64,000 bases of DNA from Candidatus Nealsonbacteria bacterium (GCA_047456315.1 CP179889.1:576776-640775); one strand, 5' to 3'. Shown: positions 7,965-34,143, numbered from the stretch's first letter. Notes: generated by a model from the letters alone, not told the origin. Made by a program: numbers and translations.

Positions 7965-7973
7965 AATTTGTAT

Positions 7974-9070: not shown

Positions 9071-9099
9071 CTCCAGGGACTGGACGAGGTTAGAACTTG
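9071..9099 (-). repeat. Copy A of the tRNA-Asn-3'-end-like repeat
   Basis: Minus strand reads CAAGTTCTAACCTCGTCCAGTCCCTGGAGCT. It matches copy B (32.66 kb) at 27 of 31 positions by eye. Confidence 0.7.
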
Positions 9100-9499: not shown

Positions 9500-9795
9500 A
9501 AAATAAGTCTAGGTTAGATTGGTCTGAATTGAGCTTAAAATAAGCATCAAAGAAAATCGACCTTTATAATATTTGTTCATGAAATGAACTTATCCACAAC
9601 ATTACTTTACCTTAAATGAAGCAAAAATTATAGTCAAGTCCCCTTAAAAATTATTCTAGCCAGATCTGTCTTTCTCGTACATTAAAGCAATAATGGTCTT
9701 GGCATCTATAATCTCTTCATTTTCTATTATTTTAACGCTTTTTCTAGATAATAACCTTTCTCTTATAAATATCTTTAACTTGTTCTTCTTCTATA

Positions 9796-10350
9796 CTACA
9801 AGTCTAAATCATTTGATATTTTTTGCATTGAATTTAATGCAATACCTACAAATTCCTCTAAAGACAAGTTCAAATATTCTTCGCATTTTTTAATGATTTC
9901 CCTATTAGCTCCTTTGGCAAAGGCCTTCTCTTTAAAGCGCTTCAATACACTTTCAGTGCTTATATCATTAATCTTTTTTGAAGGCAAGACCAGGGTGGCA
10001 GCCACAATAAGTCCTGTTAAAGGGTCAACGCAAAACAGAGCTTTGGCTATTAAGCTCTCTGGCTTAATACCATGAGCTTCATTATGAGTTAAAACTGCTT
10101 CATAAATATCCTTGTCAAAACCCAGCTCTTTTAACATATCTGCGCCTTGCTTTGAGTGTAAGTTTTCATCACCAGAAGTTTTCTCATAATCAATATCGTG
10201 AATTAATCCGCAAATCCCCCATTTTTCAACATCTTCATTAAACTTCTGGGCCAAACCTTTCATAGATGCTTCTACTGCTAAGCAGTGTTTAAGTAAGTTT
10301 TTGTTTTTTAGATTTTCTTTTAATAGATCGAGTGCCTGGTCTCTTGTCAT
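9796..10350 (-). CDS. HD-domain metal-dependent phosphohydrolase
   Basis: H...HD motif (GLIHDIDYE). Start placed at MTRDQALDLL; the longer track ORF adds an implausible hydrophobic leader that overlaps the ppaC start. Confidence 0.75.
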   Translation of the reverse strand: MTRDQALDLLKENLKNKNLLKHCLAVEASMKGLAQKFNEDVEKWGICGLIHDIDYEKTSGDENLHSKQGADMLKELGFDKDIYEAVLTHNEAHGIKPESLIAKALFCVDPLTGLIVAATLVLPSKKINDISTESVLKRFKEKAFAKGANREIIKKCEEYLNLSLEEFVGIALNSMQKISNDLDL

Positions 10351-10414
10351 AATTATGTTGAATATTATACTAATTTTATTTAATATAACATATATAATAA
10401 CATAATAAACACAT

Positions 10415-11350
10415 ATGGAAGAAAATGAAACAATATATGTAATTGGACACAAACAGCCAGACACAGACAGTATCTGTAGCCCTATTGCCTATGCCAATTA
10501 TTTAAAGCAAAAAGGTAAAAACGCTGTTGCAGTAAAATCTGGCAAAATAAATCCTGAAACAAAATATGTTTTAGATTATTTTAAAATTCAAGAACCTGAA
10601 ACCTTAACTGATGTATCGGGAAAAAAGATAATTCTTCTTGATCATAATGAAAAAACGCAAACCCCAGATAATATTGATAAAGCTGAAATTATAGAAGTTA
10701 TTGACCATCACAAGATTGCTTTTGAATGTTCAAATCCAATCTATTTTCACAATGAACCAATTGGCTCTACCGCAACAATAATTGCTAAAAAATATTTTAA
10801 TGACCAAAACGTAAAACTAGACAAAAAGATTGCTGGAATACTTTTATCAGCAATACTTTCTGATACTGTTATATTCAAATCCCCGACTTCAACAGATGAA
10901 GATATTGAAATTGCCAAAAAACTGGCTGAGATTGCTGAAATTAAAAATATTGAAGAGTTTGGCCTGGAGATTAAAAAATCTAAAGCAATCCTAAAAGAAA
11001 TGAGTTCAGAAGATATAATTCTTTCTGATTTTAAAACATATGAGTTTGGGAAAATAAAGCTTGGAGGTGGACAAGTTGAAGTTATTAACTTTACTGAAAT
11101 AAATGAAAGAAAACAGGAATTACTCAAAAAAATAGAAGAAATAGCAAAAAAAGAAAACTACGATATTCTCATTTTAACGGCAACTGATATTATAAAACAA
11201 GACTCATTGCTTTTATTCTTTGAAAAAGAAAATTATATTGAAAAAGCTTTTAATAAAAAACCTGAAAACAATACTCTCTATTTAGAAGGAGTAATGTCAA
11301 GAAAAAAACAAATTCTGCCTCCTTTGGCAAAACTCTTTTCAGAAAAGTAA
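10415..11350 (+). CDS. ppaC: Family II (DHH) manganese-dependent inorganic pyrophosphatase
   Basis: GHKQPDTDSICS, LLDHNE and DHHK motifs, with a DHHA2-like C-terminal half. Confidence 0.85.
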   Translation: MEENETIYVIGHKQPDTDSICSPIAYANYLKQKGKNAVAVKSGKINPETKYVLDYFKIQEPETLTDVSGKKIILLDHNEKTQTPDNIDKAEIIEVIDHHKIAFECSNPIYFHNEPIGSTATIIAKKYFNDQNVKLDKKIAGILLSAILSDTVIFKSPTSTDEDIEIAKKLAEIAEIKNIEEFGLEIKKSKAILKEMSSEDIILSDFKTYEFGKIKLGGGQVEVINFTEINERKQELLKKIEEIAKKENYDILILTATDIIKQDSLLLFFEKENYIEKAFNKKPENNTLYLEGVMSRKKQILPPLAKLFSEK

Positions 11351-23222: not shown

Positions 23223-26200
23223 TTATTTTAAGATTCTTTGCCAAAAGCTTTTAAGCTCTAGCTTAATATTAAAATGAATCGGCTCTCCCTCTCTTACCTC
23301 AAACGCTTCTGATTGATAGCCTTCATAATCAAGCTGCTCTACCTTTATATAATATTTCCCTTCTGGCACTAAAAATGAATACTGTCCAGTTTGATCAGTA
23401 ATTTGAGGATTTTTCTGATCATAGCTTTCTGCTGGCCAAAGAATATAGCCATCTGTAGATTTATCAAATACAAACAAACTGGCTTTGGCTCCCTTTATAC
23501 GAAGCTCACCTCTTTTAAGCTGTTCATAGATATATCCTTCAGGATCAACAAGCACAATCTTTTCCACACTCTTTTCTGTTCCATCAATAAAATTAATATC
23601 AACTCCTAACTTATACTCTCCTGTTACTGGAGGCATATATAAAATAGCTTTGAAAAATCCTTTTTCATCAGGTCCTTCAAACTTAAAGCTTTGGATTTCA
23701 TATGTTTTTGCAAAAACACTGGCCGCAGAAACCTTAGAGATGAAAGGCAGATAAAATGTGTGTTTTAATTCTATTTGAGAAGTTTTCTCAAAGTATAAAA
23801 ATCCTTTTAATGTTGAAATTGGTTTTGAGGGTTTAATAAACACAGCAATCTCTTTACCAGCAATAACATGGGCTCGCTTATCAATTAAATCAAGATCAAT
23901 ATTACCAAAAGCACTGCGCACCATAATAGTGTCTATTCTCACAATTTCAGGTGATACAGAAGGTTGAGGCACAGCTCTTTTTTTGACCACTTTTTCTTCT
24001 AATAATAATTTTTCTTGCAACGGGATTTGTAAGTAAGTCTGGTATGACTTTAACTGACGAATTGGTAGATCAGAAAAATAAGCTGCTCTGTCAATTATTA
24101 AATTAATGCCTTGATCTACCACTTTTATAACTTGGTGTGAAAACTGTGTTATTTTTCTTGTGTTTTCTTGAACTTGTTTGATTATATTTTTAATCACTGA
24201 ATCTCTTGATTCTTTAATTTCAGAGATTGTTGAACTAATTCCCTTGTCTACTGTTTTTATAGTTTGACGTGAAAATTCTGTTACACTTTTTGTAGTCTCT
24301 TGGGTTCTCTCAGCTATATTTTCAAAAGATTCGCCGACAAAATCAGTTATATTATCAATTATTTCAGATGTTTTTATAATTACATCTTGAGTTGTTTCAA
24401 TAATTTCTTTCCCTAGTTCTTTTAAAACTTGAGGTGCTTCTATTTCAATGGGAGGAAATAAAGGTTCTGGTAAAACAACAGGGGGTTCTGGAATCTCTGG
24501 AAGTATTGGAACAGGCAAAGGCTCTTCGATTTCTGGTTCAGGTAAAATCTGCTTTTGAAGCTCTTCTTGAAGTCGCAATATTTCTTTTTGAATATTTATA
24601 ATTCTAATTTTCAAATCTGCAATTAAAAGATCTATAATTATAGGAGACGGAATTTCTTCTTCAGGTTCAGGCGGCGCTTCGCCTGATGGATGCGTCGGCG
24701 CTGGAGCTGTAACTTCGGGAACTTCCTCTTCTTCTCCTGTCAAGGTAAAACTTTTGCTATTGGAGTCATAATTATTAGAGCGAACTATTATATTACCAGA
24801 AGAAGCGTCATCTGGAATTTCGATAGTAATAGACGTATCTGTCCAGACAGAAATCTTGCTGTCTTCAACTAAGACCCCATTAATAGTGATTTTATCGCTG
24901 GAGCTTGCCCTGTTGCCTTGTTCTGGACAAGTTCCTGATTGACAAAAATGATTTCCTGAAATTACAACTGATTCTCCAGCTTGAGCAGAACTGGGACTAA
25001 GACTGGTAATTCTGGGAAGAATTCTAAAATTAGTCCAGTTGTCTGCTTTGCTGTCAGAAGAGCGAGTAAGAACAATATTGCCTGTATAGCTATTATCACT
25101 GATGCTGGTAGGAATTCTTATTGCAATAGCAGTATCAGCCCAGGAATTAACTGTAGCGCTTTCTCCTAACACAGTAATTATTCCTGTTGAATCAGCAAAT
25201 CTATTGCCATTAATCGTTATTATGCCATCGCTGTCTGACGAAGAATATTCTCTAGCTGCATTAGTTATTTGAGGCGTGGTTAAAGAAGTAATATCAGGAT
25301 AAATATAAAAAGTTAAGAGCGAAGAATCATCAACGGCATTAGCTCTGACTATTAGACCATTGCTATTACTTCCGCCAAAAACATTGATATCTGGGGCAAT
25401 AGTAAAAGTGATATTTGTTGAATTCCAGGAAGAAACATCATCGCAAGAAATAGAATAAGAACCAATTTTTACTTTACTTTGCGGCGAACTGCAAGAAGAG
25501 CCAAAATTAGATCCAGAAACAGTAATCTGCTGGTTAATACGTCCTCCATCAGTTAATCCAGGCTCAGTATCATTAGTAAATGAAGTAGCGTCAGGACCAG
25601 AAACCGTGATTAGTTTTGGATATTGAGTGTAAACAGATAAAGCGGTTCCATCTGCCTTGACCATCTTAAAACAATAAGTAGTTGAAGCACTAGCTCCATT
25701 ATCTTCTACTACCCAGTCCCATTCTCCTTTCTCACCTATTTCAATAGCGACAGGATTAGATAAAGAGTTATTTTCTTCTTCATAGGTCTCTAGTTTATTG
25801 GTCTGAGAATCTAATAAGGAGGATGTGATACTAGCTCCATCAGCAGGAGTAGTATTGTTGTATCCACGCCAGATGGTTCCACTTGATATTGCTCCTGTAT
25901 CATACCAGTTAAGACCTGAATCACATGTAGCAGTTGTTGAAGCGTACTGGAGTTTAAATGCTTGAGTAGAAGTAGCTAAAGATGATGAAGCTATCTGAAT
26001 AGATGTTCTGATTCTTAAAACATCATTAGTAGCTACATTGGTAATAGCAGTGTTTTCATCAGCTTTAGGAGTTGTTGGCTGGATATTGTCAATGTTGTCA
26101 TAGAAACGGTAGTAGTTCTGAATAAGAGTGGTGCTGGCTGTGGTTAGCTTTGGATAGTTGGTGTAGGTATTAAGAACACTATCATCTGACTTAACCATTC

Positions 26201-29200
26201 TAAAGCAGTAATCAGTATTGGCTATTGCTCCATTATCTTCTACTACCCAGTCCCATTCTCCTTTCTCACCTATTTCAATAGCAACAGGATTAGATAAAGA
26301 GTTATTTTCTTCTTCATAAGTCTCTAGTTTATTGGTCTGAGAATCTAATAAGGAGGATGTGATACTAGCTCCATCAGCAGGAGTAGTATTGTTGTATCCT
26401 CTCCAGATGGTTCCACTTGATATTGCTCCTGTATCATACCAGTTAAGACCTGAATCACATGTAGCAGTTGTTGAAGCGTATTGGAGTTTAAATGCTTGAG
26501 TAGAAGTAGCTAAAGATGATGAAGCTATCTGAATATTCATCCTGAGTCTTAAAACATCATTAGTAGCTACATTGGTAATAGCAGTGTTTTCATCAGCTTT
26601 AGGAGTTGTTGGCTGGATATTGTCAATGTTGTCATAAAAGCGGAAATCTTTTTGCGTAAAGGTAATAGGAGTAATAAAAACTACATTAATATAATCAGCT
26701 TTTAAGGTCTGGTTTCCTGATGCCTGATAGACTCTAATATAAACCCAATTGCTAGCATCATAATAATAGCCAGGATTGGTATCTATGGTGGCTTCTAAAA
26801 GAAAATCTGTGTTAGCGCTGCAAGTAGTATTAGTAGCCAAGTTGTCCCAACTACTAGAGTTGGAGTTATAAGCCTGAAGATAGACAGTATTGATATCGCA
26901 AGCTACTGTGGTCTGACCATCCCAATCAATATCAATATCATCAGTATTATTGGTATGTTTTTCAGCAAAGAGAAAAATTGGATAAGCTGAACTGCTGGTA
27001 GCTGGGTCATAACTACTATCATCTGTGGCAACGGCTGTATAACCTGTATCATCTAAATAATAAGTTAAATCTGATTCATCAATGGGAAGAGACCCTTGGC
27101 TTGTTTTGGAATATCGCTTAGTTACTGAAGAAACAATGGATAACTGACCATAGCTGGAGTAATTGTCTAAAATTTGGGTATCAGTGTTGTTATAAAGTCG
27201 TAAACAGTAACTAGTGTTTTCTGCAGCATTAGATGTCTCAATCATAAAACCAAACTCAGTGTTATAATCAATATCAAGAGTATGAGCAGAGCTAGTGGAG
27301 ACGTTTTCATGCCATGTCCCATTAGTAAAACCAGTACACCCATCATCACAAGAACTGGTAGTGTCAGTAACAGCAGCACTAATAGCATCTCCGTTTACTC
27401 CAGCCAGACCAAGAGAATAAGAAATGGCTGTAGTACCGGTGGCATCATACCAGGTCTCAGCTGCTGAACATCCAGTTCCGAAAGTTTTAAACTGAAGCTT
27501 GTAAACTTTGCTTGTAGCAGCAGCAGTTCCAGTATTGTCTAATTGAACCCTCCAGATAGCCCTCTCTCCTTTTTCCATTGTTAAAGAAGTGTCAGCATTA
27601 GCAGAATTAGTGTTTGAATTGACATTTGCTCCATTATCATTCTGCCAACGGTAAGAACGTTGGTTGAGAATCGGGCTAACTAGCGTATAAGTAATTCTCA
27701 CTGGTATCCAATCATAAGAATTTGTTCCTGGACCACCCTGTTGATCATGTCTTACCCTTACCCTAAAGTTAGTATTATTTAATTTTGTATCATCCCAAGT
27801 AGTAGCAGAAGTAAAATCCCAATAAACTACAGTTTCACCATTACAATCACTTAATGCTGAACTTACTTGCTCAGCGCTCCAGTTACTTCCTCCTCCATCC
27901 CAGGAAACTGAAATTGCTATTTTCTCGTCTCCGCACGCTTCGTAACCAACTTCTACTTTATCAATACTATTACCCGATAATGAAATATTATAATCGTAAT
28001 AATCATGAGAATCATCATTCGGTAATGAAGTGGCATAACTATCGTTTGAACTATAAGCATTGATTGGATCAGTAAAACCACCCACTACTGCTGCATTGTT
28101 GGTGGGACTATAAACTGTTTCAGCAGCTTTTACTTTTTGCGACTCTGACCTAAAATTAAAAATTGGCCCCATAAAGGAAAGAATAAGCACAACAATCAAA
28201 ACCAGCGAAACAATCTGTTTTGAAGAAATTTCATACTTGATTTGTTCTGGCCATATTCTTTTTATCGTTAACGTGCTTTTCTGAAATATTTCTTTAGCTT
28301 TTACAACACCTTCAATATAGTTACTGAACGCGCCTGATATTTTCCCGTCTATTTTCTGAATTCCCTGCTTAACGCTTACTCCTAGCTCGTTTTGATACCA
28401 TTCAATAAAATCCATAAAACCCAGCACTCTTTCTCCAGTTGAGTTCAATGCTTTTTTAAAAACCTGTTTTTCATCATTGCAAATTTCAAATAGTAATTTT
28501 CTATAATAAACAAGCAGTGCTTTGGTCTTTATTTTTATTCTTTCTTTTTTGTAAACAATCCTGTGCCAAAATCTAATTTTTAAAAGTTTAAAATGTATTT
28601 TAAATTTAAATAATTTTAAGTTTATGTTTTTGAAAATGAAAGCAAGAAGTTGCCTTCTGTGATTTATTTCACTCTTCAGCAACTTCTTTTTTTCTTCAAA
28701 TGAAAATATGAATGATTTGTAATTTTTTAAAAATATTTTTTTATTTTCTTTTTTAAATAAAAATAAATATTTTTTAATTTCTTTTTCTGTTTTAATTCTT
28801 TCTTTTATGAATTCTTTTTTGTACTTGCTAAATTCATACCTTATAATTTTTATTTTTTTACTGGTAAAACGAATTGTTAAAGATCTTTGTTTCAACAAAG
28901 ATCTTTCTAATATTTTAAATCTTTTTTGATAATCACAAGTATATTTTTTGGATAGTTTTTTATACTCATGAATATAATCAGAAATCGCTTTTTTAGCTTT
29001 ATTTTTGATTAAATTTGCTTTTTTAGGTGCTTTATTAAAAACAGCTTGGAAAAACAATTTTTCCATTTCTTTTTGATAGCTTTCAAAAAAATCAATAAGT
29101 TTTAATGCTCCGTTCCCAATAGAATTAAACAGATTTTTAAAAACCTGTTTTTCATCATTAATAATTTCGATAAATAAATTTTTATATTTTATTAAGAAAT

Positions 29201-29642
29201 AATTTATTTTATTTATTTTTTTATTTATTTTTTTAAATAAATTAAATAAAAATAAATATGTTTTTTGAATTTTTTTATTGTGAAAAACAACTTTTTTTTG
29301 CTCATTAAAAAAAGAAATTCCCAAAGATTTTCTTTGGGCTAAAAATTTCAATTCTTTTTTATATACTCTTTTTAATTTTCTTCTCTGCTCTTTGTATTCA
29401 CTCTCAATGCTTTTTATTTTGTTCTTAATCAACAAGATTAATGAAACTATTTGCTTATAAAGCTTCTTTTTTTGTCTCTTTAGTAAACGAATATTCTTTT
29501 TTAAAAATCTTCTAATCTGAACCAACAAAACTCTGATTCTTTTCAAATGAAAAAACCTTCTAACTTGAATTAACAAAACCCTGGTTCTTTTTAAAGACCA
29601 AATTCTGATTTTTTTCCAAATTGTTATGATTTTTTTTGTCAT
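23223..29642 (-). CDS. Giant (2139 aa) single-pass surface protein
   Basis: From the N-terminus: ~475 aa Lys/Arg-rich repetitive region, one TM helix (IVSLVLIVVLILSFMGPIF), and beta-rich Asn/Ser/Thr modules including three copies of a ~178-aa module. Then IPT/TIG-like repeats (ITVSGSNFG, ITINGNRFA, VVISGNHFC), a Pro/Glu linker, a coiled-coil repeat (TEFSRQTIKTVDKGI / TQFSHQVIKVVDQGI), and a C-terminal carboxypeptidase-regulatory-like beta-sandwich. Confidence 0.85.
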   Translation of the reverse strand: MTKKIITIWKKIRIWSLKRTRVLLIQVRRFFHLKRIRVLLVQIRRFLKKNIRLLKRQKKKLYKQIVSLILLIKNKIKSIESEYKEQRRKLKRVYKKELKFLAQRKSLGISFFNEQKKVVFHNKKIQKTYLFLFNLFKKINKKINKINYFLIKYKNLFIEIINDEKQVFKNLFNSIGNGALKLIDFFESYQKEMEKLFFQAVFNKAPKKANLIKNKAKKAISDYIHEYKKLSKKYTCDYQKRFKILERSLLKQRSLTIRFTSKKIKIIRYEFSKYKKEFIKERIKTEKEIKKYLFLFKKENKKIFLKNYKSFIFSFEEKKKLLKSEINHRRQLLAFIFKNINLKLFKFKIHFKLLKIRFWHRIVYKKERIKIKTKALLVYYRKLLFEICNDEKQVFKKALNSTGERVLGFMDFIEWYQNELGVSVKQGIQKIDGKISGAFSNYIEGVVKAKEIFQKSTLTIKRIWPEQIKYEISSKQIVSLVLIVVLILSFMGPIFNFRSESQKVKAAETVYSPTNNAAVVGGFTDPINAYSSNDSYATSLPNDDSHDYYDYNISLSGNSIDKVEVGYEACGDEKIAISVSWDGGGSNWSAEQVSSALSDCNGETVVYWDFTSATTWDDTKLNNTNFRVRVRHDQQGGPGTNSYDWIPVRITYTLVSPILNQRSYRWQNDNGANVNSNTNSANADTSLTMEKGERAIWRVQLDNTGTAAATSKVYKLQFKTFGTGCSAAETWYDATGTTAISYSLGLAGVNGDAISAAVTDTTSSCDDGCTGFTNGTWHENVSTSSAHTLDIDYNTEFGFMIETSNAAENTSYCLRLYNNTDTQILDNYSSYGQLSIVSSVTKRYSKTSQGSLPIDESDLTYYLDDTGYTAVATDDSSYDPATSSSAYPIFLFAEKHTNNTDDIDIDWDGQTTVACDINTVYLQAYNSNSSSWDNLATNTTCSANTDFLLEATIDTNPGYYYDASNWVYIRVYQASGNQTLKADYINVVFITPITFTQKDFRFYDNIDNIQPTTPKADENTAITNVATNDVLRLRMNIQIASSSLATSTQAFKLQYASTTATCDSGLNWYDTGAISSGTIWRGYNNTTPADGASITSSLLDSQTNKLETYEEENNSLSNPVAIEIGEKGEWDWVVEDNGAIANTDYCFRMVKSDDSVLNTYTNYPKLTTASTTLIQNYYRFYDNIDNIQPTTPKADENTAITNVATNDVLRIRTSIQIASSSLATSTQAFKLQYASTTATCDSGLNWYDTGAISSGTIWRGYNNTTPADGASITSSLLDSQTNKLETYEEENNSLSNPVAIEIGEKGEWDWVVEDNGASASTTYCFKMVKADGTALSVYTQYPKLITVSGPDATSFTNDTEPGLTDGGRINQQITVSGSNFGSSCSSPQSKVKIGSYSISCDDVSSWNSTNITFTIAPDINVFGGSNSNGLIVRANAVDDSSLLTFYIYPDITSLTTPQITNAAREYSSSDSDGIITINGNRFADSTGIITVLGESATVNSWADTAIAIRIPTSISDNSYTGNIVLTRSSDSKADNWTNFRILPRITSLSPSSAQAGESVVISGNHFCQSGTCPEQGNRASSSDKITINGVLVEDSKISVWTDTSITIEIPDDASSGNIIVRSNNYDSNSKSFTLTGEEEEVPEVTAPAPTHPSGEAPPEPEEEIPSPIIIDLLIADLKIRIINIQKEILRLQEELQKQILPEPEIEEPLPVPILPEIPEPPVVLPEPLFPPIEIEAPQVLKELGKEIIETTQDVIIKTSEIIDNITDFVGESFENIAERTQETTKSVTEFSRQTIKTVDKGISSTISEIKESRDSVIKNIIKQVQENTRKITQFSHQVIKVVDQGINLIIDRAAYFSDLPIRQLKSYQTYLQIPLQEKLLLEEKVVKKRAVPQPSVSPEIVRIDTIMVRSAFGNIDLDLIDKRAHVIAGKEIAVFIKPSKPISTLKGFLYFEKTSQIELKHTFYLPFISKVSAASVFAKTYEIQSFKFEGPDEKGFFKAILYMPPVTGEYKLGVDINFIDGTEKSVEKIVLVDPEGYIYEQLKRGELRIKGAKASLFVFDKSTDGYILWPAESYDQKNPQITDQTGQYSFLVPEGKYYIKVEQLDYEGYQSEAFEVREGEPIHFNIKLELKSFWQRILK
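25694..26639 (-). repeat. Tandem 534-nt (178-codon) duplication inside the giant gene
   Basis: 25694-26105 and 26228-26639 are near-identical, with only a handful of mismatches by eye. The offset is exactly 534 nt, so the duplication is in frame. Confidence 0.9.
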
Positions 29643-29792
29643 GTTTTTTTTAAAATCAAAAGTATAGCCTCAGCTCAATAGCATAAAGGATATATTAGTT
29701 AATTATACGCCTAATACAAAGAATACGCCTGTGGATAAACCCACCAAGAGCCCAGCAATCATTCAGCTCTTGTCAAAAGCGCAATTATTCTT

Positions 29793-29810
29793 TTAAAGAC
29801 GTTAGAAAAA
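29793..29810 (-). repeat. Copy H (short, degenerate) of the repeat core
   Basis: Minus strand reads TTTTCTAACGTCTTTAAAAG, followed 16 nt later by TTGACA. Confidence 0.35.
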
Positions 29811-30417
29811 AATACAAAAGAAAATTTATTTTAATATTTCGATATCAAGAGTTTTAAAAATCTTGTCAACAATAACACTTACCTATTTTACATTTTTGTT
29901 GGTCACAGAAACTTGATGTTCTTTTCCCTCTGCCATAGTTCTTAAAGTCTGACAAACCAATCAATAAAAGCAGTGTTGTAATAACTGCTTGGTAGTTTGA
30001 AAAAATTGTTAGCAATAATTGTTTTGTAAATTTCTAATAACTTCTTGTTTGTTAAAAAAATTGTTCTGTTGATTTCTGGTTAACAATTATTTGGCTAACA
30101 ATTAAATTAATTTCCATTGCCAAAAATTTCAAACTCGCTCCATTCCCAACCTGAATGACAACCTCTCCAACTATGCTTAATTTGCAAATCATCAGACAGT
30201 GTTTGTGGCTTTAATAAAACATAATTGAAAATTAAAGAGAGGTTGTAATTTCAGTGATAATTATTACAATTGAATCCTTTTTCCTCATAAAATCCTTAAT
30301 AAACCTTAAAAATCATTATAAATCATATCTATTATCAGGATGTCTGAGAAATAGCTAAAATACTTATAATATAAGCAATAATTTCTGGAATAAAACCAGT
30401 AAAAATAGTTGATGTGT

Positions 30418-30445
30418 TTCGAGAAACGAACGATATTAAAACCCA
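30418..30445 (-). repeat. Copy G of the repeat core (overlaps a stop codon)
   Basis: Minus strand reads GGGTTTTAATATCGTTCGTTTCTCGAAAC. The TAA stop of the 143-aa ORF lies inside it. Confidence 0.45.
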
Positions 30446-30867
30446 TTTCTTTTTTTAATAGCTATCACCATAACACCTACCATGCCAATTAAAAAACCAA
30501 GAGGACAAACAAAAATTGCAATAAGGAAAAACGCCACGTGTAAAACTTCTGTCAAATAATTCAATAGAACAATATGACCAGTAATTATACTTAAAGCATA
30601 AAAGGCATTATGCAAAAAAACAAAGATAAAAAATCCAACAGCAGAAGCCCCTGTTAACAGCAAGAACTTTCTCAATACTCCTTTTATTCTTTTTTTCAAG
30701 GTTAAAAATATTAATACTACGCCCAAGAAAGAGAAAATAATAAATGGTAACAAAAAAAGCTCAGAACCTTTAAACAAGTTTCTAATTACTGGAATAAAAA
30801 ATTCACTCAATATAAAAAGAAAAAATCCTACTAATGCCCAGAATGTTATCGTTAAAGATTTCTTCAT
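30436..30867 (-). CDS. Hypothetical four-TM membrane protein
   Basis: ORF with four clear hydrophobic helices; no family recognised. Confidence 0.5.
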   Translation of the reverse strand: MKKSLTITFWALVGFFLFILSEFFIPVIRNLFKGSELFLLPFIIFSFLGVVLIFLTLKKRIKGVLRKFLLLTGASAVGFFIFVFLHNAFYALSIITGHIVLLNYLTEVLHVAFFLIAIFVCPLGFLIGMVGVMVIAIKKRNGF

Positions 30868-30876
30868 TGCTTTACT

Positions 30877-30910
30877 CTACCAAAAAATCGCCCTTTAGGC
30901 GATTTTTATT
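30877..30910 (-). repeat. Direct repeat of the sequence immediately 3' of tRNA-Asn (terminator module)
   Basis: CTACCAAAAAATCGCCCTTTAGGCGATTTTTATT here versus CTACCAAAAAACCGCCTTCTCGGCGATTTTTGTT at 33276-33309. They match at 29 of 34 positions. The sequence also folds as a hairpin flanked by A- and T-runs. Confidence 0.7.
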
Positions 30911-30964
30911 ATAAGCTTTCATTATTGAACGTACTTAAAATTTTTGATTGTAGAATAATTAGAA

Positions 30965-30985
30965 AAGAAATCGAACCGCTTAAAT
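30965..30985 (-). repeat. T-loop-like fragment (GCGGTTCGA) downstream of csp
   Basis: Minus strand reads AAGCGGTTCGATTTC, compared with GCGGGTTCGAGTCC in tRNA-Asn. It comes directly after the csp terminator hairpin (GCACCTT...AAGGTGC). Confidence 0.4.
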
Positions 30986-31029
30986 TAAACACAAAAGCAC
31001 CTTCAATATCAAGGTGCTTTTGTAGAGTA

Positions 31030-31230
31030 TTAGACTCGATTGACGTTTGTAGCACTAGGTCCTTTTTCGCCCTCAGTTACTTCAAATGTCACTTTGTCGC
31101 CTTCTTTGAGTTCGTTGAACTCTACGTTCTTAAGCTCGTTTGAATGGAAAAAGAGATCTTTTTCTTCACCCTCACGACTAATGAACCCAAATCCTCGATC
31201 AGTAAGTCGAGCAATTGTTCCTTCTTGCAT
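31030..31230 (-). CDS. cspA: Cold-shock domain protein
   Basis: Contains GTIARLTDRGFGFISREGEEKDLFFH, the RNP1/RNP2 motifs of the CSD. Confidence 0.92.
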   Translation of the reverse strand: MQEGTIARLTDRGFGFISREGEEKDLFFHSNELKNVEFNELKEGDKVTFEVTEGEKGPSATNVNRV

Positions 31231-31313
31231 AGAATTTAAAGAATTAATAAATAATGTTCGAAAATATAATACTGTAGAACAAAACCCGACTACGTTTTTC
31301 TTACAGTATCAGT

Positions 31314-31342
31314 ATAATACCATTTGTATAATTTTACGTCAA
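31314..31342 (-). promoter_or_regulatory. Sigma70-type promoter of csp
   Basis: Minus strand reads TTGACG - 17 nt - TATTAT. It leaves a ~75-nt leader containing the inverted repeat CTGTAAGAA...TTCTACAG. Confidence 0.55.
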
Positions 31343-31351
31343 TACTTAGTT

Positions 31352-31378
31352 CCAAGTCACGAACGACATTAAAACCTA
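31352..31378 (-). repeat. Copy E of the repeat core
   Basis: Minus strand reads ATAGGTTTTAATGTCGTTCGTGACTTGG, starting 12 nt after the stop of the 68-aa ORF. Confidence 0.45.
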
Positions 31379-31389
31379 TTTTGTTGGCA

Positions 31390-31596
31390 TTATTTAAAAA
31401 TTTTATTCTTAACTTTCTTAATTTCTGGTGGTTTTTCTAATAGTTGTCCTTTATATAATTTATATAAAAGAGGAATAACTCCACAATCTTTACATTTACC
31501 CCAAGCGCATTTTCCTTTCTTTTCTTTAAATAGTCTTTTACACATTGCAATCTCCTTATTAAAAATCTCTTTACTAATAACTTTTTTCTTTTTCAT
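31390..31596 (-). CDS. Small Lys-rich Cys-cluster protein (68 aa)
   Basis: ORF with C-x11-C-x5-C-x2-C (CKRLF...CAWGKCKDCG); no family name recalled. Confidence 0.45.
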   Translation of the reverse strand: MKKKKVISKEIFNKEIAMCKRLFKEKKGKCAWGKCKDCGVIPLLYKLYKGQLLEKPPEIKKVKNKIFK

Positions 31597-31610
31597 ATTC
31601 TTATTTTATC

Positions 31611-31668
31611 AAAAAACCGCCTAAAAGGCGATTTGCCAGGGCTCCGTATCGTGAACGATGTTAAAAAT
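31611..31668 (-). repeat. Copy C: repeat core plus a tRNA-Asn-terminator-like hairpin
   Basis: Minus strand reads TTTTTAACATCGTTCACGATACGGAGCCCTGGCAAATCGCCTTTTAGGCGGTTTTTTG. The CGGAGC and AAATCGCC-N4-AGGCGGTTTTTTG parts parallel the tRNA-Asn 3' end and its terminator. Confidence 0.6.
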
Positions 31669-31938
31669 AATCTAAAATGTTCCTGTTTCGAACTTGAATT
31701 TTGTACAACTATATAAAAATATTGGTCTTAGAAACTATGGAATAAAGAAAATGGTTAAAATTATAATTAAAACCATTTAAAAAAATTAGTCAGGAGGAAA
31801 TTTTAGGGCTTTCTTTATGTCTTCAAGCCCTTTTATTACTGTCTCTGTTTCTTCCTCTTTCTCTTCTGACTTTTTTTCTTCTACATTCTCAAAGAGCGTC
31901 ATATCATTTTATTACCTTATTTAAAGAATTTATCAACT

Positions 31939-31999
31939 AAAAAACCTGAGATAATATTTCGAGTTCACAGCTCTAGAGACTAGATGAGATTAAAACCTG
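31939..31999 (-). repeat. Copy F of the full ~60-nt unit (AT-decayed)
   Basis: Minus strand reads CAGGTTTTAATCTCATCTAGTCTCTAGAGCTGTGAACTCGAAATATTATCTCAGGTTTTTT. It differs from copy B mostly by transitions. Confidence 0.6.
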
Positions 32000-32047
32000 T
32001 TTAATTAAATAAAAAAAGTTGGCGACTAAGCACCAATCTTTAATAGA

Positions 32048-32218
32048 TTAATCTTTACTCCTTTTAAGATAAGCTTTAACTCCGCCTCTCTCTCCTCCAT
32101 TTATTACGTCCATTAATTCCCAGCCCTGCTTACCTAATTCGTTCAACTTATTTACATCCGAGCTATTACCTTTAAGCTTTAAAAATTCATATTCAAAAAT
32201 TTCCCTTATAAAAATCAC
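32048..32218 (-). CDS. DUF4177-like mini-protein (56 aa, GTG start)
   Basis: Own translation: VIFIREIFEYEFLKLKGNSSDVNKLNELGKQGWELMDVINGGERGGVKAYLKRSKD. The LNELG..GWEL core is DUF4177-like. Start codon uncertain. Confidence 0.4.
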   Translation of the reverse strand: MIFIREIFEYEFLKLKGNSSDVNKLNELGKQGWELMDVINGGERGGVKAYLKRSKD

Positions 32219-32277
32219 CTTTAATTTGTAATTTTAATCTACCTCTTTCTACTTCATATTTTGCTTATTGTCAAGTT

Positions 32278-32328
32278 AAAAACCCAAGAAATAATCTCGG
32301 GCAGGTCGTTGAAAGACGTTAGAACCTA
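32278..32328 (-). repeat. Copy D of the unit (core + hairpin + T-run)
   Basis: Minus strand reads TAGGTTCTAACGTCTTTCAACGACCTGCCCGAGATTATTTCTTGGGTTTTT. GACCTGCCCG matches tRNA-Asn GTCCTGCCCG at 9 of 10 positions. Confidence 0.6.
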
Positions 32329-32333
32329 TTTTA

Positions 32334-32606
32334 CTACCTGAACTGAATTACAAATAAGCCCTTTTCTTCAATTTCTTCTTTCTGTCCAAAATCATTAAGT
32401 TTAAACTTCGAAACATAATCTACCAACTTTTCTATTTTCCTTCCTGTGTATTGTCTAGTCTCTGGATTCCATTCCTCTAACACGAATGTGTCCCCTTCTT
32501 TAATATCAAAATCAGCTAACCTTAGCTCAAATCTCTTTTTACCAGAATTTATGAGCTCAAAATAATCTGGCCAGATTTTCTTTTTGATGATTGCCATATA
32601 TTTCAT
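32334..32606 (-). CDS. ASCH/DUF3850-like small protein
   Basis: Contains KKKIWPDYFELINSGKKRFELRLADFDIKEGDTFVLEEW, matching the DUF3850 pattern (K.fE.R..D....GD.l.L.E). Confidence 0.6.
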   Translation of the reverse strand: MKYMAIIKKKIWPDYFELINSGKKRFELRLADFDIKEGDTFVLEEWNPETRQYTGRKIEKLVDYVSKFKLNDFGQKEEIEEKGLFVIQFR

Positions 32607-32612
32607 TATATC

Positions 32613-32675
32613 AAAAACCCGAGAAACAATCTCGGGCTGAACGAAGCTCCGGGGGCTGGACGAGGTTAGAATCTG
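32613..32675 (-). repeat. Copy B of the unit (best preserved)
   Basis: Minus strand reads CAGATTCTAACCTCGTCCAGCCCCCGGAGCTTCGTTCAGCCCGAGATTGTTTCTCGGGTTTTT. Against tRNA-Asn GCGGGTTCGA/GTCCTGCCCGCGGAGC it scores 7 of 10 and 14 of 16, with a 5-nt insertion (ACCTC). Confidence 0.7.
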
Positions 32676-32688
32676 CTTAACACTTAAT

Positions 32689-33243
32689 TCATTGTAAAAA
32701 ATCAGGATCTACCTCTAAAAACTGTTTCATTTTATTCAGGGCAATTTTTCTCATAGACATAGAATCTTTTTCCTCCTGGCTCATTTCTGCAAAAGTTTTG
32801 TTATAGCCTTCTGGTTGAAAAATTGGATCCCATCCGAAACCACCTTCACCCCTTGGCTTCTCTGGTATTTGACCTTTAATTTCACCCGTAAATATCTTCG
32901 CCTCTTTGCCGTTGTAAAGGCAAATAGAGATTTTAGCAGTGACAGTGCGGTTCTTTTCTTGAAAAGCCAAGCACAATCCCTCGTTATCAAGAGTTTTCAA
33001 AATCCATTTAATCAACGCTCCTGGGAATCCTTGCCAGGCCTCAATGTAAAATCCTGTATCTTCAACCATCACTGGTTTTTTAACCTGCTCAAAAGCCCTC
33101 TTGGCCTTATCTTTAACTACCTCTTCTATCTTGAGAGTCTGAATCTCGTTGATATCTAAAAGTATCTTATCAACTTCAAAACCTAGAATGTCTTCTACTT
33201 CTTTAATCTTGTTTTCGCTAGATGTAATAAAATAAAGTTGCAT
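32689..33243 (-). CDS. rdgB: Non-canonical purine NTP pyrophosphatase (RdgB/HAM1 family)
   Basis: Contains FITSSENKIKE...EDTGFYIEAWQGFPG...GFGWDPIFQPEGYNKTFAEM. Confidence 0.88.
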   Translation of the reverse strand: MQLYFITSSENKIKEVEDILGFEVDKILLDINEIQTLKIEEVVKDKAKRAFEQVKKPVMVEDTGFYIEAWQGFPGALIKWILKTLDNEGLCLAFQEKNRTVTAKISICLYNGKEAKIFTGEIKGQIPEKPRGEGGFGWDPIFQPEGYNKTFAEMSQEEKDSMSMRKIALNKMKQFLEVDPDFLQ

Positions 33244-33280
33244 GGGTAAAAATTAATCTTTTATATAATTTCATCCTACC

Positions 33281-33300
33281 AAAAAACCGCCTTCTCGGCG
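33281..33300 (-). terminator. Intrinsic terminator after tRNA-Asn
   Basis: Minus strand reads CGCCGAGAAGGCG followed by GTTTTTT. Confidence 0.65.
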
Positions 33301-33311
33301 ATTTTTGTTTG

Positions 33312-33383
33312 CTCCGCGGGCAGGACTCGAACCCGCAACAACTGGATTAACAGTCCAGCGTTCTACCATTGAACTACCGCGGA
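33312..33383 (-). tRNA. tRNA-Asn (GTT)
   Basis: Hand-folded. Acceptor TCCGCGG/CCGCGGA; D-arm GTTC-AATGGTA-GAAC; anticodon arm CTGGA-CTGTTAA-TCCAG; T-arm GCGGG-TTCGAGT-CCTGC. No encoded CCA. Confidence 0.9.
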
Positions 33384-33397: not shown

Positions 33398-34069
33398 TTA
33401 TGTTTTGAAAAGACCAGATATCCAGCCTATAATTTTTCTCTGTATATTAACATCACTTATTCTTATCCTAAACACACCGTAAATGTTTTTTGTTTTTCTT
33501 AGTCGGTTGGGATTATTTTTTACAATATAAGTTTTTGTAAATTGACTAAGAGGAATTTTGGTAAGTTTTGACCAAAATTTTTTAGCTTTCTTCTCATCCA
33601 AGTTATCATGTAAATATATACTTCCTCGAAATTTCGCTTCAGGTATCTTACAAAATTCTCGAAGCCAACTCATCATAAATTTTATAGAACGGGAATCCGA
33701 ATTACTAAAAGCAACATGTTTATCTCCTTTCTCTCCTTCAGCAAAATACATAGATACCCCAGCTATGAACCTATCCCTTTTTGATAAATCACCTAATTCC
33801 CTTATTCCTTCTTTAATTAATCTTTTTGTTAGTTCTTCTCGCGCTCTTATTTTATTCATTGCTGCAATAATACTTCCTTTCAGGGCACCAGTTTTTTTAT
33901 TTAAATACAATTTTTCAAGTTGACTCTTACTCAATCTAACATCCCTAACCCATAAACTTACAGAAGACCTCGAAACACCTAACGTTTTCTGAATTTCTTT
34001 TATCGATATTCCTTTTTTCCGTAATTTTCTGGCCTTTAATTTTAATTCTAATTTACCTACATATACCAT
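33398..34069 (-). CDS. HTH protein with a LAGLIDADG-like homing-endonuclease-type C-terminal domain
   Basis: N-terminal HTH resembling resolvase or IS30 types (KGISIKEIQKTLGVSRSSVSLWVRDV). The central FIAGVSMYFAEGEKGD...VAFSNSD...FWSKLTKIP segment resembles LAGLIDADG-type endonuclease folds. Assigned from memory of motifs only. Confidence 0.45.
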   Translation of the reverse strand: MVYVGKLELKLKARKLRKKGISIKEIQKTLGVSRSSVSLWVRDVRLSKSQLEKLYLNKKTGALKGSIIAAMNKIRAREELTKRLIKEGIRELGDLSKRDRFIAGVSMYFAEGEKGDKHVAFSNSDSRSIKFMMSWLREFCKIPEAKFRGSIYLHDNLDEKKAKKFWSKLTKIPLSQFTKTYIVKNNPNRLRKTKNIYGVFRIRISDVNIQRKIIGWISGLFKT

Positions 34070-34080: not shown

Positions 34081-34143
34081 CTCATATCGAACCTACAATT
34101 TCAAGTCTTATACCACCCGCACTACCATTACGCCACGACGGAA
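34081..34143 (-). pseudogene. Truncated, degenerate tRNA-like fragment
   Basis: Minus strand reads TCCGTCGTGGCGTAATGGTAGTGCGGGTGGTATAAGACTTGAAATTGTAGGTTCGATATGAG. Acceptor 5' strand, D-arm and GGTTCGA T-loop are recognisable. The anticodon stem does not pair, and there is no T-stem or acceptor 3' strand. The fragment runs into the ATG of the HTH ORF. Confidence 0.45.

Follow-up and report, generated by a model that had tools for sequence, protein, structure and literature searches.

A tRNA-Asn locus of a Candidatus Nealsonbacteria genome with probable relics of large serine recombinase attachment sites

The Gene Array Downstream of tRNA-Asn

The window analyzed here, a stretch of 64,000 nucleotides from the genome of a Candidatus Nealsonbacteria bacterium (GCA_047456315.1, CP179889.1:576776-640775), carries a tRNA-Asn gene that is followed on the same strand by short genes and by copies of a degenerate unit (Table 1). 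The terminator first described directly after the tRNA is present as a terminator-like hairpin and belongs to a 34-nt segment, F2, which recurs, as also described, at 30877-30910 (29 of 34 positions identical) and partially at 31606-31636, where a second copy of its terminator lies 3′ of unit C. The block formed by F2, rdgB and a unit is kept in the loci L001, L003 and L053.

The repeat is real and has a single orientation. Its core, GGTTYTAAYNTCGTYC, is matched seven times with at most two mismatches, against 0.78 matches expected and a count of seven that none of 100 shuffles reached. The minus strand carries all seven; six cluster a short way downstream of tRNA-Asn, at 30.4-32.7 kb, and the seventh lies at 9082-9097. 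With an nhmmer profile made from 112 independent units, matches were obtained at 9103-9069 (E = 6e-8), 32671-32645 (3e-5), 32332-32311 (0.012), 31663-31641 (0.015) and 31382-31351 (1.1). Because no match beyond these five was obtained with the profile in the 64 kb, the unit is not scattered across intergenic DNA; units G and H are too decayed for the profile to score in the window. Judged by 5000 shuffles, the consensus (p = 0.0002) and copy B (p = 0.0006) are more like the 3′ end of tRNA-Asn than chance would give, and tRNA-Asn is the best match of both among the four tRNAs of the window; copy A and a decayed copy in L001, taken singly, show no specificity for tRNA-Asn. Copy B agrees with GTCCTGCCCGCGGAGC at 14 of 16 positions, and the 5-nt insertion originally described in it appears as a 5-nt gap in the optimal alignment of the unit consensus with tRNA-Asn.

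Homologous hairpins lie 3′ of units B, D and F, those of B and D agreeing at 92%, and TTGACA-like boxes occur, as first noticed, 3′ of units D, E, H and A. The hairpin of unit D (32276-32301) is fused to the unit and TTGACA comes next; TTGACA is likewise next to unit H, which is set in an AT-rich, ORF-free stretch of about 780 nt, and an extended -10 promoter-like site lies 3′ of unit E. The modules of the array carry promoter- and terminator-like sites of their own. The further claim that a unit follows the stop of every gene within 0-40 nt is incorrect as stated: 3′ of csp there are a terminator of its own, a GGTTCGA fragment and a terminator copy, with no unit, the 38-aa ORF is 110 nt away from unit C, the DUF4177-like ORF, which has its own terminator (32036-32019), is 44 nt away from unit F, and no gene precedes unit H. 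Family searches with the 68-aa Cys-rich ORF gave no match. Unit A is preceded by a 28-codon remnant of a gene that encodes 198 aa in a 91% relative without the unit.

Table 1. Features of the tRNA-Asn locus and of the orphan unit A; assignments to P and B arms are predictions.
Feature	Position	Strand	Evidence or remark
tRNA-Asn(GTT)	33311-33383	-	ARAGORN and Rfam, 72.5 bits; ends GCGGGTTCGAGTCCTGCCCGCGGAGCA, then AACAAAAATCGCCGAGAAGGCGGTTTTTTGGTAG
tRNA-Asn 3′ part, putative B arm of integrase target (attB)	33310-33336	-	GCGGGTTCGAGTCCTGCCCGCGGAGCA
F2, terminator-like hairpin and T-run, then TGGTAGGAT; between tRNA and rdgB	33276-33309	-	Sequence
rdgB/Ham1, 184 aa	32689-33243	-	Pfam Ham1p_like E=9e-47; linked to F2 in all relatives examined
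Unit B, putative P-arm relic TAAGCAGATTCTAACCTCGTCCAGCCCCCGGAGCT; antisense LRGLDEVRICL	32645-32679	-	nhmmer E=3e-5
Hairpin and T-run after unit B, homologous to those of D and F	32611-32639	-	Terminator scan; repeat family D13, 92%
DUF3850/ASCH gene, 90 aa	32334-32606	-	Pfam DUF3850 E=1.7e-17
Unit D, putative P-arm relic, GGAGC end lost	32302-32332	-	nhmmer E=0.012
DUF4177-like ORF, 56 aa	32048-32218	-	Pfam E=1.3e-4, below curated cut-off
Unit F, putative strongly decayed P arm; antisense L*RLDEIKTCL	31969-32003	-	Motif match with 2 mismatches
Unit C, putative "long-tail" P arm; antisense LRIVNDVKNNL	31640-31675	-	nhmmer E=0.015; repeat family D1
Cys-rich ORF, 68 aa	31390-31596	-	ORF list; gene call in CP179890
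Unit E, putative decayed P arm	31348-31382	-	Core motif; nhmmer E=1.1
csp, 66 aa	31030-31230	-	Pfam CSD E=3e-21; own terminator 31024-30990
T-loop-like GGTTCGA fragment, upstream of third F2 copy	30967-30980	-	Sequence
Third F2 terminator copy	30875-30912	-	29/34 identical to post-tRNA copy
Membrane ORF, 143 aa	30436-30867	-	Stop codon inside unit G; gene call in CP179890
Unit G, core only GGTTTTAATATCGTTC, GGAGC end lost	30416-30448	-	Exact match to degenerate core
Unit H, residual core TTCTAACGTCTTT	29790-29812	-	Repeat family D17, 89% to unit D; alone not significant
Unit A, putative well-preserved orphan P arm; antisense LQGLDEVRTC	9069-9102	-	nhmmer E=6e-8

The Unit and a Family of Large Serine Recombinases

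The unit consensus, AAACAGGTTCTAAC(A/G)TCGTCC-N7-GGAGC, is present in about 100 species-level genomes, mostly of CPR bacteria. It was found in 102 stretches (about 17 expected by chance), and 264 of the 266 profile matches are co-oriented within their locus. Among the 31 tRNAs in unit loci, to which those of the window and L001 are additional, 14 are tRNA-Asn, which lies on the strand of the units and always upstream of them. Conservation ends exactly after GGAGC(T), and the right flanks of units are mutually unrelated. The suggestion that the unit is a miniature repeat that carries a terminator and a promoter and mobilizes genes is not borne out, because its conserved part is only the P arm of about 35 nt and not the 3′ flank.

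Coding constraint is apparent on the antisense strand of the unit, where variability is 3-periodic, a 3-nt indel keeps the frame, and D/N and V/I replacements occur. The antisense peptide extends upstream into the sequence of a large serine recombinase (LSR) with a Zn ribbon, a coiled coil and the motif "...VLELAxCPTGL|R..."; PF00239 was found on one fragment, and full-length relatives of 490-540 aa have the order Resolvase, Recombinase and Zn_ribbon_recom. The 3′ end of the LSR gene overlaps tRNA-Asn in antisense (attL) in 38 of 80 metagenomic loci, and in others of the 80 the LSR genes end in unit-type tails; the target is mostly tRNA-Asn and occasionally a Gln, His, Trp or Thr tRNA. Because the LSR gene of related loci enters exactly the 3′ part of tRNA-Asn, this part most likely corresponds to the B arm of attB. 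One element, L185, has the order rpoD, tRNA-Asn, LSR, 8.6 kb of cargo, and unit, and joining its LSR at GCTCC to the distal unit yields ...HHPTVLQLLDEIRTCF and a stop codon in frame, with a product of 499 aa. Since this joining restores the LSR reading frame, the sequence identifies the unit as the C-terminal tail of the LSR gene and the P arm of attP, left behind as attR. Neither the window nor the 102 genome loci yielded an LSR gene or remnant, which counts against the link, and the units of the window are tied to an integrase through homology with other loci. The originally proposed cassette-capture system with a recombinase outside the window was right in part: the recombinase now has a family, no member of which lies in the window; its capture of integrase-less cassettes in trans is considered below as an alternative.

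From GGTTC to GGAGC, units measure 28 nt and tRNA-Asn 23 nt. In serine integrases, the motif contacted by the zinc-ribbon domain lies 5 bp nearer the center in attB than in attP (Rutherford et al., 2013; PMC3783163), and the 5-nt gap of the unit relative to the tRNA equals this offset. The link to tRNA-Asn, the 5-bp geometry and one attL/attR pair are, like the identity of the unit as LSR tail and attP arm, shown by these data.

The usual targets of tyrosine integrases are tRNA 3′ ends. In classical tRNA-linked islands made by such enzymes, the units might represent 3′ ends of tRNA-Asn that were duplicated or displaced and then decayed with age; hotspots at Asn tDNAs are known from Klebsiella (PMC4891358), and an insert in the sister genome CP179890 has a distal repeat with tRNA-type spacing. 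This origin is highly improbable. The N7 segment does not match the acceptor stem of the local tRNA, so the units did not arise by displacement of local tRNA ends, and every unit has the same 5-nt offset and a consensus of its own. The antisense-encoded LSR tail also contradicts it, and no tyrosine integrase was found among Pfam-annotated neighbors or recurrent ORF families. Likewise, the units, first described as copying the 3′ end of the tRNA together with its terminator, are instead probable attP P arms, distinct in consensus from the local tRNA.

The position of the units, 38% of which lie 0-60 nt past the stop of a co-oriented ORF, could also reflect a functional transcript element under selection, such as a tRNA-like 3′ tag, a processing site or a terminator module. 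Terminator-like hairpins often bracket the units, and RNAalifold gives a small hairpin in the long-tail class, but this hairpin is confined to that class, and by construction its outer stem does not vary. Rfam contains no match to the unit, the codon-periodic variability is on the opposite strand, and orthologous copies diverge faster than their surroundings, all of which make a selected transcript element very unlikely. The position after stops is accounted for by the convergent cargo and integrase genes of the element.

Integration, Decay and Accretion at the Locus

The tRNA-Asn site is polymorphic between sister genomes, with two different inserts. The junction of tRNA-Asn and F2-rdgB is empty in the window and is an unoccupied attB junction in this genome; CP179890 (L001) has an insert of 2.66 kb, and in CP179887 (L053) a unit stands directly before the homologous F2-rdgB. 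The 2.66-kb insert may be of other origin, because the spacing of its distal repeat is of the tRNA type and not of the unit type. Between the window and L001, orthologous units are 85.3% identical and the whole segment is 92.2% identical, and 24 of 25 changes in units are transitions; the units of the window thus decay neutrally and faster than their surroundings. The orthologue of unit F in L001 (11241-11275) is well preserved (nhmmer E = 9.5e-6), and that of unit G has a profile E of 6.2. With a polymorphic junction and neutrally decaying units, the first of the original readings, serial insertion at tRNA-Asn leaving decaying att relics, is essentially right.

The most probable explanation (about 0.8) is that the unit is the attP P arm of an LSR family spread across the CPR/Patescibacteria, that the 3′ end of tRNA-Asn is the target, and that the window contains an old hotspot. 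In the free element, attP would overlap the 3′ end of the integrase gene, the last 11-27 codons and stop of which would be the antisense strand of the unit. Crossover would take place in or just 3′ of GGAGC and leave the tRNA intact; the integrase gene would then adjoin the tRNA and read into it with a swapped C-terminal tail (attL), and its former tail would be left at the distal end of the insert, where, as attR, it would constitute the unit. The unit would resemble the tRNA-Asn 3′ end because one enzyme binds both, the shared GGTTC motif lying 5 bp farther from the crossover in the attP-type half-site of the unit than in the attB-type half-site of the tRNA. The 3.5 kb downstream of tRNA-Asn would be an old hotspot of repeated integration and recombination, in which seven like-oriented P-arm relics show where past inserts ended distally; the integrase genes would have been lost, and the survivors would be short co-oriented genes that have promoters and terminators of their own. 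As leftovers of attachment arms of a tRNA-Asn LSR, the units make the stretch a repeatedly used integration hotspot and not a new cassette machine.

Known serine integrases depend on an entire attB and are not known to reuse attL; repeated insertion at one tRNA would therefore need an additional step. For the accretion of one-gene segments we infer a mechanism only: the part of each insert that lies near the tRNA and bears the integrase would be lost, after which the tRNA B arm could serve again with an arbitrary right-hand flank, and segments might also be reshuffled by homologous exchange between units. Unit B does not derive from insertion at the present junction, because rdgB lies between the empty attB and this unit. 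Segments of 0.3-0.9 kb with one intact gene are not an obvious product of random deletion in 10-kb elements; like the position of rdgB, this runs against the preferred explanation.

Homologous exchange might even have built the arrays. The units would then be portable homology for RecA-type recombination, for example after uptake of DNA from relatives, and integrase action would be merely the distant origin of the repeats. At the site of unit E, CP179890 has two units around a 3.0-kb segment with pyrF and pyrD, which begins with a tRNA-type T-arm relic. The two sides of this mid-array indel share 14 nt, and its junction falls within the GGTTYTAAY core instead of at GGAGC, which points to homologous exchange rather than to integrase crossover. 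The identity of the window to L001 steps from 99-100% to 92.2% and then to 96.5% exactly at the tRNA end and unit E, as fits segmental replacement, and unit A is tied to an indel that is not at a tRNA. However, imperfect homology of 15-35 nt is a poor substrate, and neither the source of the P-arm copies nor their constant orientation downstream of tRNA-Asn is explained. Such exchange, unlikely as the sole explanation, complements integration by the LSR and does not replace it.

Alternatively, as in integrons, an LSR whose gene lies elsewhere could act in trans on small integrase-less circles of one gene with an attP-like site and insert them serially at tRNA-Asn, in which case the array would be an active gene-capture platform and not a graveyard. 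One or a few short co-oriented genes per unit are seen in many CPR genomes, the arrays have no integrase remnants, the five units of L035 are near-identical over about 80 nt including the 3′ flank, and NYN-like and 392-aa protein families recur in unit-bounded segments with differing neighbors. Nevertheless, only one of 220 right flanks exceeds the 99th percentile of the control in similarity to the LSR P′ arm, and the best type (L035/L027) is just 1.5-2 sd above control; because the right flanks are unlike P′ arms, complete attP sites are not evident. Moreover, the units of the window decay neutrally, comparison of cassettes between L061 and L048 places a unit boundary on one side only, and no circular form was seen. 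Capture in trans is accordingly quite improbable.

Comparison With Known Systems

No description of such an architecture in these genomes was found in the literature, in agreement with what was first supposed. The family shares with known LSRs, such as the A118-type LI integrase of Listeria, phiC31 and Bxb1, the arrangement of Resolvase, Recombinase, Zn ribbon and coiled coil, short att sites of low attP-attB identity, hybrid attL and attR without long direct repeats, and the shift of the zinc-ribbon-domain motif to 5 bp closer to the crossover in attB (PMC3783163). It differs in its choice of a tRNA gene 3′ end as target, in the overlap of attP with the last codons of the integrase gene, and in arrays of up to seven or more attR-type relics, which a strict attP × attB rule does not predict. 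A large survey of LSRs was confined in its analysis to protein-coding targets and mentions neither tRNA nor Patescibacteria (PMC10083194).

A site inside the integrase coding sequence, a match to a tRNA gene and rearrangement of the gene on integration are shared with the archaeal SSV-type ("suicidal") tyrosine integrases (PMC7253208). The present family belongs to the serine and not to the tyrosine superfamily. Whereas an SSV-type integrase gene is split into two large parts and inactivated, here the last 11-27 codons would be swapped for antisense-tRNA codons, the ORF remaining at about 500 aa.

Repeated partial tRNA copies occur in Prochlorococcus islands and tycheposons. A reusable tRNA 3′ end, nested repeats and strain-variable occupancy are likewise found in tRNA-linked islands that grow by tandem accretion, such as those at the Asn tDNAs of Klebsiella (PMC4891358). 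These islands have tyrosine integrases and repeats that are true copies of the tRNA end, whereas the units appear to be attP arms with a 5-bp offset and the segments are mostly single small genes.

Finally, an array of short same-strand modules ending in repeats that resemble recombination sites, beside a fixed landing site, is common to integrons (IntI, attI, attC) and to the Xer-dependent pdif modules of Acinetobacter plasmids. Unlike integrons, the present array has no tyrosine recombinase beside it and its units lack the inverted-repeat structure of attC; its modules have their own promoter- and terminator-like sites, and its units are most likely half-sites of a serine integrase.

The repeated unit and its surroundings

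Seven matches to the core motif occur in the window against 0.78 expected, and no shuffled sequence gave seven. All seven lie on the minus strand, six of them within 30.4-32.7 kb, in keeping with the original prediction of a repeated motif in a single orientation. Repeat search recovers the core family together with three copies of F2 (the terminator-like hairpin and T-run between tRNA-Asn and rdgB) and the homologous hairpins behind units B and D. When copies from the window, its sister genome CP179890 (L001) and a more distant genome (L003) are laid out without gaps, they give a longer unit, (T)AAACAGGTTCTAAYNTCGTYCA-N5-YGGAGCT. The proposed likeness to the tRNA-Asn 3′ end is greater than random sequence would give (p=0.0002-0.0006); among the four tRNAs of the window, the consensus and copy B are specific for tRNA-Asn, which copy A and a decayed L001 copy, taken singly, are not. 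Units G and H are core remnants only. Matches to the unit profile in the window are confined to the array and the isolated unit A, and the unit is therefore not spread through intergenic DNA. The claim that every small gene is followed by a unit within 40 nt was too strong, because csp has no unit and the 38-aa ORF is separated from unit C by 110 nt. Comparison of the window and 12 unit-bearing loci with Rfam covariance models gave no match at the gathering score other than tRNAs.

The window, which comes from a Candidatus Nealsonbacteria (CPR/Parcubacteria) source, is ~99% identical to CP179890.1 across most of the aligned stretch. On the minus strand, rpoD is followed by a tRNA-like fragment, a 223-aa HTH gene, tRNA-Asn and F2, and then by rdgB, DUF3850/ASCH, a DUF4177-like ORF, the 38-aa ORF, a 68-aa ORF, csp, a 143-aa membrane ORF, ~780 nt of AT-rich non-coding DNA and a 2139-aa gene; the genes that flank the array encode a sigma-70 factor, an HTH protein and a surface protein of giant size. 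The tRNA-like fragment comprises the 5′ acceptor strand and the D-arm, extends as far as ...AAATTGTAGGTTCGAT in the T-loop, and is called by neither ARAGORN nor Rfam. The HTH gene, situated between this fragment and the intact tRNA-Asn, has its first 463 bp deleted in CP179890. Its product was considered as a recombinase and rejected, because it has HTH matches only and is truncated in CP179890; apart from the truncated L001 copy, no homologue was found in the 102 unit-bearing genome loci (L011-L112), and its single-sequence AlphaFold model is poor (pLDDT 52). The surface-type gene begins with three 45-48-nt direct repeats, which encode a basic repeat, and its CP179890 counterpart is called as 4452 aa, a great difference in length between near-identical genomes. 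The non-coding stretch between unit G and this gene (GC about 26%, no ORF >50 aa) is ~96% conserved in CP179890 and holds the core remnant H and TTGACA boxes. After the 38-aa ORF lies a perfect-ended palindrome, AAATGGTTTTAATTATAATTTTAACCATTT, which includes the GGTTTTAAT core start and has no unit score. Upstream of unit A stand the last 28 codons left (…KETKYSQDNCHVN*) of a gene that spans 198 aa in a 91% relative (L201); L201 has no unit at this site, and no tRNA-Asn lies near unit A. An exact-protein look-up of the window RdgB returned no record.

Coordinates of features in the window and in related loci
Sequence	Feature	Position	Strand
Window	Unit A region	9069-9300	
Window	2139-aa surface-type gene	23223-29642	-
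Window	Three direct repeats at start of 2139-aa gene	29503-29619	
Window	AT-rich non-coding stretch	29650-30430	
Window	Unit E	31348-31382	
Window	Palindrome	31749-31778	-
Window	tRNA-Asn	33311-33383	-
Window	223-aa HTH gene	33398-34069	-
Window	tRNA-like fragment	34086-34142	-
L001 (CP179890)	2.66-kb insert	7267-9928	
L001 (CP179890)	3.0-kb pyrF-pyrD segment	11884-14893	
L071	GIY-YIG gene	6386-6709	
L078	GIY-YIG gene	6082-6384	
L119	Integrase locus with a tRNA other than tRNA-Asn	7416-7792	
L185	Unit	420-453	
L185	Large serine recombinase gene	9098-10600	
L185	tRNA-Asn	10561-10633	

In a species-representative genome collection, a degenerate 28-nt pattern matched 102 stretches, where roughly 17 were expected by chance, and about 90% of them belong to Patescibacteria of many classes. 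A profile built from 112 distinct units found 266 copies in these loci, 264 of which are co-oriented within their own locus, and 79% of the units so found come after a co-oriented ORF. On the unit strand, 14 of 31 tRNAs (genome loci, window and L001) are tRNA-Asn, always upstream of units. There is no match between the variable 7-mer (N7) of the units and the local tRNA-Asn acceptor stem, which indicates that units are not displaced local tRNA ends. Viral contigs gave 0 matches to the unit pattern and three weak loci with a profile of large serine recombinases (LSRs). Two CPR loci that are unrelated to each other (L071 and L078) have small GIY-YIG genes (100-107 aa) directly downstream of tRNA-Asn, and two more such genes lie beside tRNA-Gln in L009.

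The serine integrase and its attachment sites

Judged by sequence comparison, the unit is the tail of an LSR gene and, at the same time, the P arm (one half) of its attP. A mechanism can therefore be named for serial site-specific insertion at tRNA-Asn, the first reading offered in the original prediction, which was right in substance. A subset of units is conserved over an extra 60 nt on the 5′ side, and the antisense variability of this extension is 3-periodic, with an in-frame 3-nt indel and the translation ...LRIVDDVRTIIQRQNEYIYIPDL..*. A peptide profile of the antisense tails retrieved only short ORFs, three of which reach further upstream, and a search with the 119-aa ORF of L116 yielded fragments of up to 208 aa with a zinc ribbon (FIYYSCTNAKxICKR) and a coiled coil. 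Fragments of this class share the block ...IFESSEPxEKRAILxFxLQNPxVSGKKLxFxLxKPFxTVLELAxCPTGL, which is followed by either a unit-type (LRIVNNVRT...) or an antisense-tRNA (LRGQDSNLEP...) tail. One fragment bears PF00239, and in L120 a Resolvase ORF and the C-terminal part, with one frameshift between them, run into GTAGGTTCGAATCCTACCGCCGGAGCC, the 3′ end of tRNA-Asn. The antisense of the window units reads LQGLDEVRTC in A, LRGLDEVRICL in B, L*RLDEIKTCL in F, LRIVNDVKNNL in C and FQVTNDIKTYF in E. Two other identities of this peptide were rejected: the C-terminus of a class II aaRS (AsnRS-like 'DNIRDVI'), which lacked Pfam support and was superseded by the LSR result, and the N-terminus of a GIY-YIG protein, for which frame and length are wrong.

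Of 444 confirmed loci that the C-terminal alignment identified in metagenome contigs, 80 were kept, most with ORFs of 490-540 aa. At 38 of the 80 loci a tRNA-Asn called by ARAGORN overlaps the end of the ORF on the opposite strand, and further loci have unit-type tail ends. In L119, L132, L133, L139, L149, L176, L177 and L184, tRNA-Gln, -His or -Trp is fused antisense, or tRNA-Thr lies just downstream, which indicates that the integrase family has switched tRNA targets several times. Full-length ORFs of the related loci L185, L122 and L141 carry the Pfam domains Resolvase, Recombinase and Zn_ribbon_recom, the set by which an LSR is defined. In the 64-kb window itself, tblastn with the L185 LSR gave nothing below E=4.7, and no LSR gene was found in the 102 genome loci or in a check of L001 and L002. 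The insert in L185 is complete and has the rpoD - tRNA-Asn surroundings also seen in the window; a terminator precedes its unit, and a 1205-aa TPR+PIN protein and a deaminase are among its cargo. Its hybrid sites, attL where the tRNA and the LSR gene meet and attR 8.6 kb off, share no long direct repeat. When the LSR is joined at GCTCC to the unit read in antisense, an in-frame ...HHPTVLQLLDEIRTCF* is restored, and in this frame the conserved AAACAG before the unit corresponds to Cys-Phe/Leu plus the stop codon. Candidate attR sites are present on the expected strand in L183, L193, L123 and L145.

The span from GGTTC to GGAGC is 28 nt in the units and in the attP of L116, L113 and L185, and 23 nt in tRNA-Asn. 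In the Listeria integrase system, the zinc-ribbon-domain motif sits 5 bp nearer to the centre in attB than it does in attP, and similarly shifted motifs occur in all but one of several further LSR systems examined (Rutherford et al. 2013, PMC3783163). The '5-nt insertion' noted earlier, a gap which the alignment of the consensus to tRNA-Asn does require, is therefore the 5-bp attP/attB offset. The attP of L116 has inverted outer motifs, GGTTCT...AGTACC, at its ends, 58 bp apart. The crossover maps within or just 3′ of GGAGC, and the bases that follow vary (CC, CA, CT).

Conservation of the units stops exactly after GGAGC(T), and the right flanks are a mixture of terminators, promoters and F2-like hairpins. 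When these flanks were scored with a PSSM of 23 LSR P′ arms, 1 of 220 exceeded the 99th percentile of the controls. Because the flanks are unlike a P′ arm, the units are P|X junctions, that is, attR-like sites. That they are whole attP sites (P-P′) was rejected on this negative test; apparent tblastn support from the flank of L027 vanished on inspection. Between the window and L001, orthologous units have diverged at 25 of 170 positions (85.3% identity, against 92.2% for the whole segment), and 24 of the 25 differences are transitions; the units are decaying relics.

Polymorphism among relatives and origin of the array

Comparison with relatives showed that occupancy of the junction between tRNA-Asn and F2 differs between the window and two sister genomes. 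In L001, an insert lies exactly between the tRNA end GGAGCA and F2, as aligned to the window, and encodes a Big_1 protein, a PycTM (Pycsar-effector-like) protein and two small ORFs; at its distal end is a repeat, CCAGGTTCTAGACCGATTAGGGGAGCA, with the spacing of the tRNA and not that of the units. A left end resembling that of this insert (AGGCTAG...) follows tRNA-Asn in L035. In the second closed relative, CP179887 (L053), a well-preserved unit stands directly before the homologous F2-rdgB. Because the window has nothing inserted at this junction and the two relatives are occupied in different ways, the junction is polymorphic among sister genomes. In the more distant L003, rdgB has another context, with a decayed tRNA-spaced relic and F2 upstream and a unit downstream.

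Before integration, when the element is free, its integrase gene and a cargo gene would converge across attP. After integration, the cargo gene and the P arm would lie at the far end and the integrase gene beside the tRNA, and loss of the tRNA-proximal, integrase-bearing part would leave a gene plus unit, with the intact tRNA before foreign DNA. The sequences 3′ of tRNA-Asn show no conservation in 14 loci. Integration may therefore depend little on the right half of attB, in which case the site could be used again, and repeated cycles would then stack gene-plus-unit modules. The array probably arose through such serial insertion, integrase loss and site reuse, a scheme that would explain why all units point the same way, why they lie so near to stop codons and why the modules have promoters and terminators of their own.

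Units have probably taken part in homologous exchange as well. In place of the single unit E of the window, L001 carries two units that enclose pyrF (OMPdecase) and pyrD (DHO_dh). The junction of this segment lies inside the unit core, its start is a tRNA-spaced T-arm relic (GAGTTCGAATCTATCAGTCCGAGAG), and the identity between L001 and the window steps at the tRNA end and at unit E (99-100% on the left side of the tRNA end, 92.2% between there and unit E, 96.5% past unit E), all of which point to such exchange. Less probably, cassettes without an integrase may be mobilised in trans, as suggested by five ~80-nt near-identical modules in the L035 array and by gene families that recur in unit-bounded segments with differing neighbours.

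On a rather unlikely reading, the CPR tRNA-Asn locus is a platform for gene capture that is active and can be reused, driven by a serine integrase and functionally analogous to an integron. The B arm in the tRNA alone would then suffice as target, irrespective of the right-hand sequence, and inserts, including trans-mobilised one-gene circles lacking an integrase, would stack indefinitely and pass between lineages. Such a platform would supply minimal genomes with accessory genes for defence, nucleotide metabolism and stress.

Comparison with known systems

The ~35-nt motif of about 100 CPR species can be explained as the footprint of one integrase family, and tRNA-Asn as the point at which accessory DNA lands across a whole phylum of bacteria with very small genomes. 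The cargo seen includes a PycTM protein, a TPR-PIN conflict-system protein, a deaminase and pyrF/pyrD, and the unit may serve as a simple marker of horizontally acquired segments in CPR MAGs. The family is also a source of numerous natural attP/attB pairs whose target is conserved universally and which display the 5-bp half-site rule cleanly, and this may interest serine-integrase researchers and engineers, and the stacked attR relics pose the question of whether a serine integrase can reuse a site with a replaced right half. A literature search found no paper linking serine recombinases to Patescibacteria or to tRNA-Asn targeting there; a study of horizontal transfer in Patescibacteria does not mention tRNA or integrases (PMC12455944), and a large LSR survey is restricted to protein-coding targets (PMC10083194).

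Integrons have an IntI-type tyrosine recombinase and attI beside the array, whereas there is no Phage_integrase among the Pfam-annotated neighbours here. Their attC sites are imperfect inverted repeats (R''-L''...L'-R') that fold as single strands; the unit does contain strings resembling GTTRRRY/RYYYAAC, but in the wrong order and spacing and without a dyad, and its conservation is one-sided (the P arm). Identity with attC was rejected accordingly; on folding, a small hairpin appears in the long-tail unit class only. Islands made by tyrosine integrases at tRNA genes end in a distal direct repeat with the sequence and spacing of the local tRNA, whereas in units the spacing is 5 nt longer and the N7 is unlike the local acceptor stem; tRNA-type spacing at a distal boundary was seen in the CP179890 insert alone. 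A dif/Xer-like site gave no convincing match by eye. Group I introns occupy position 35/36 in the anticodon loop of CPR tRNA-Asn, a separate phenomenon (PMC13011429), and a group I intron 3′ end with its tRNA exon was rejected because the unit has no anticodon-stem part. An SSV-style integrase split into large halves was also rejected, since no long antisense ORF lies beside tRNA-Asn in L071 and L078; in the present family the tail alone is exchanged. As read from the nucleotide and protein alignments, this is an LSR att system with an unusual target, the 3′ end of a tRNA, with attP in the last codons of its own integrase gene and with stacked attR relics.
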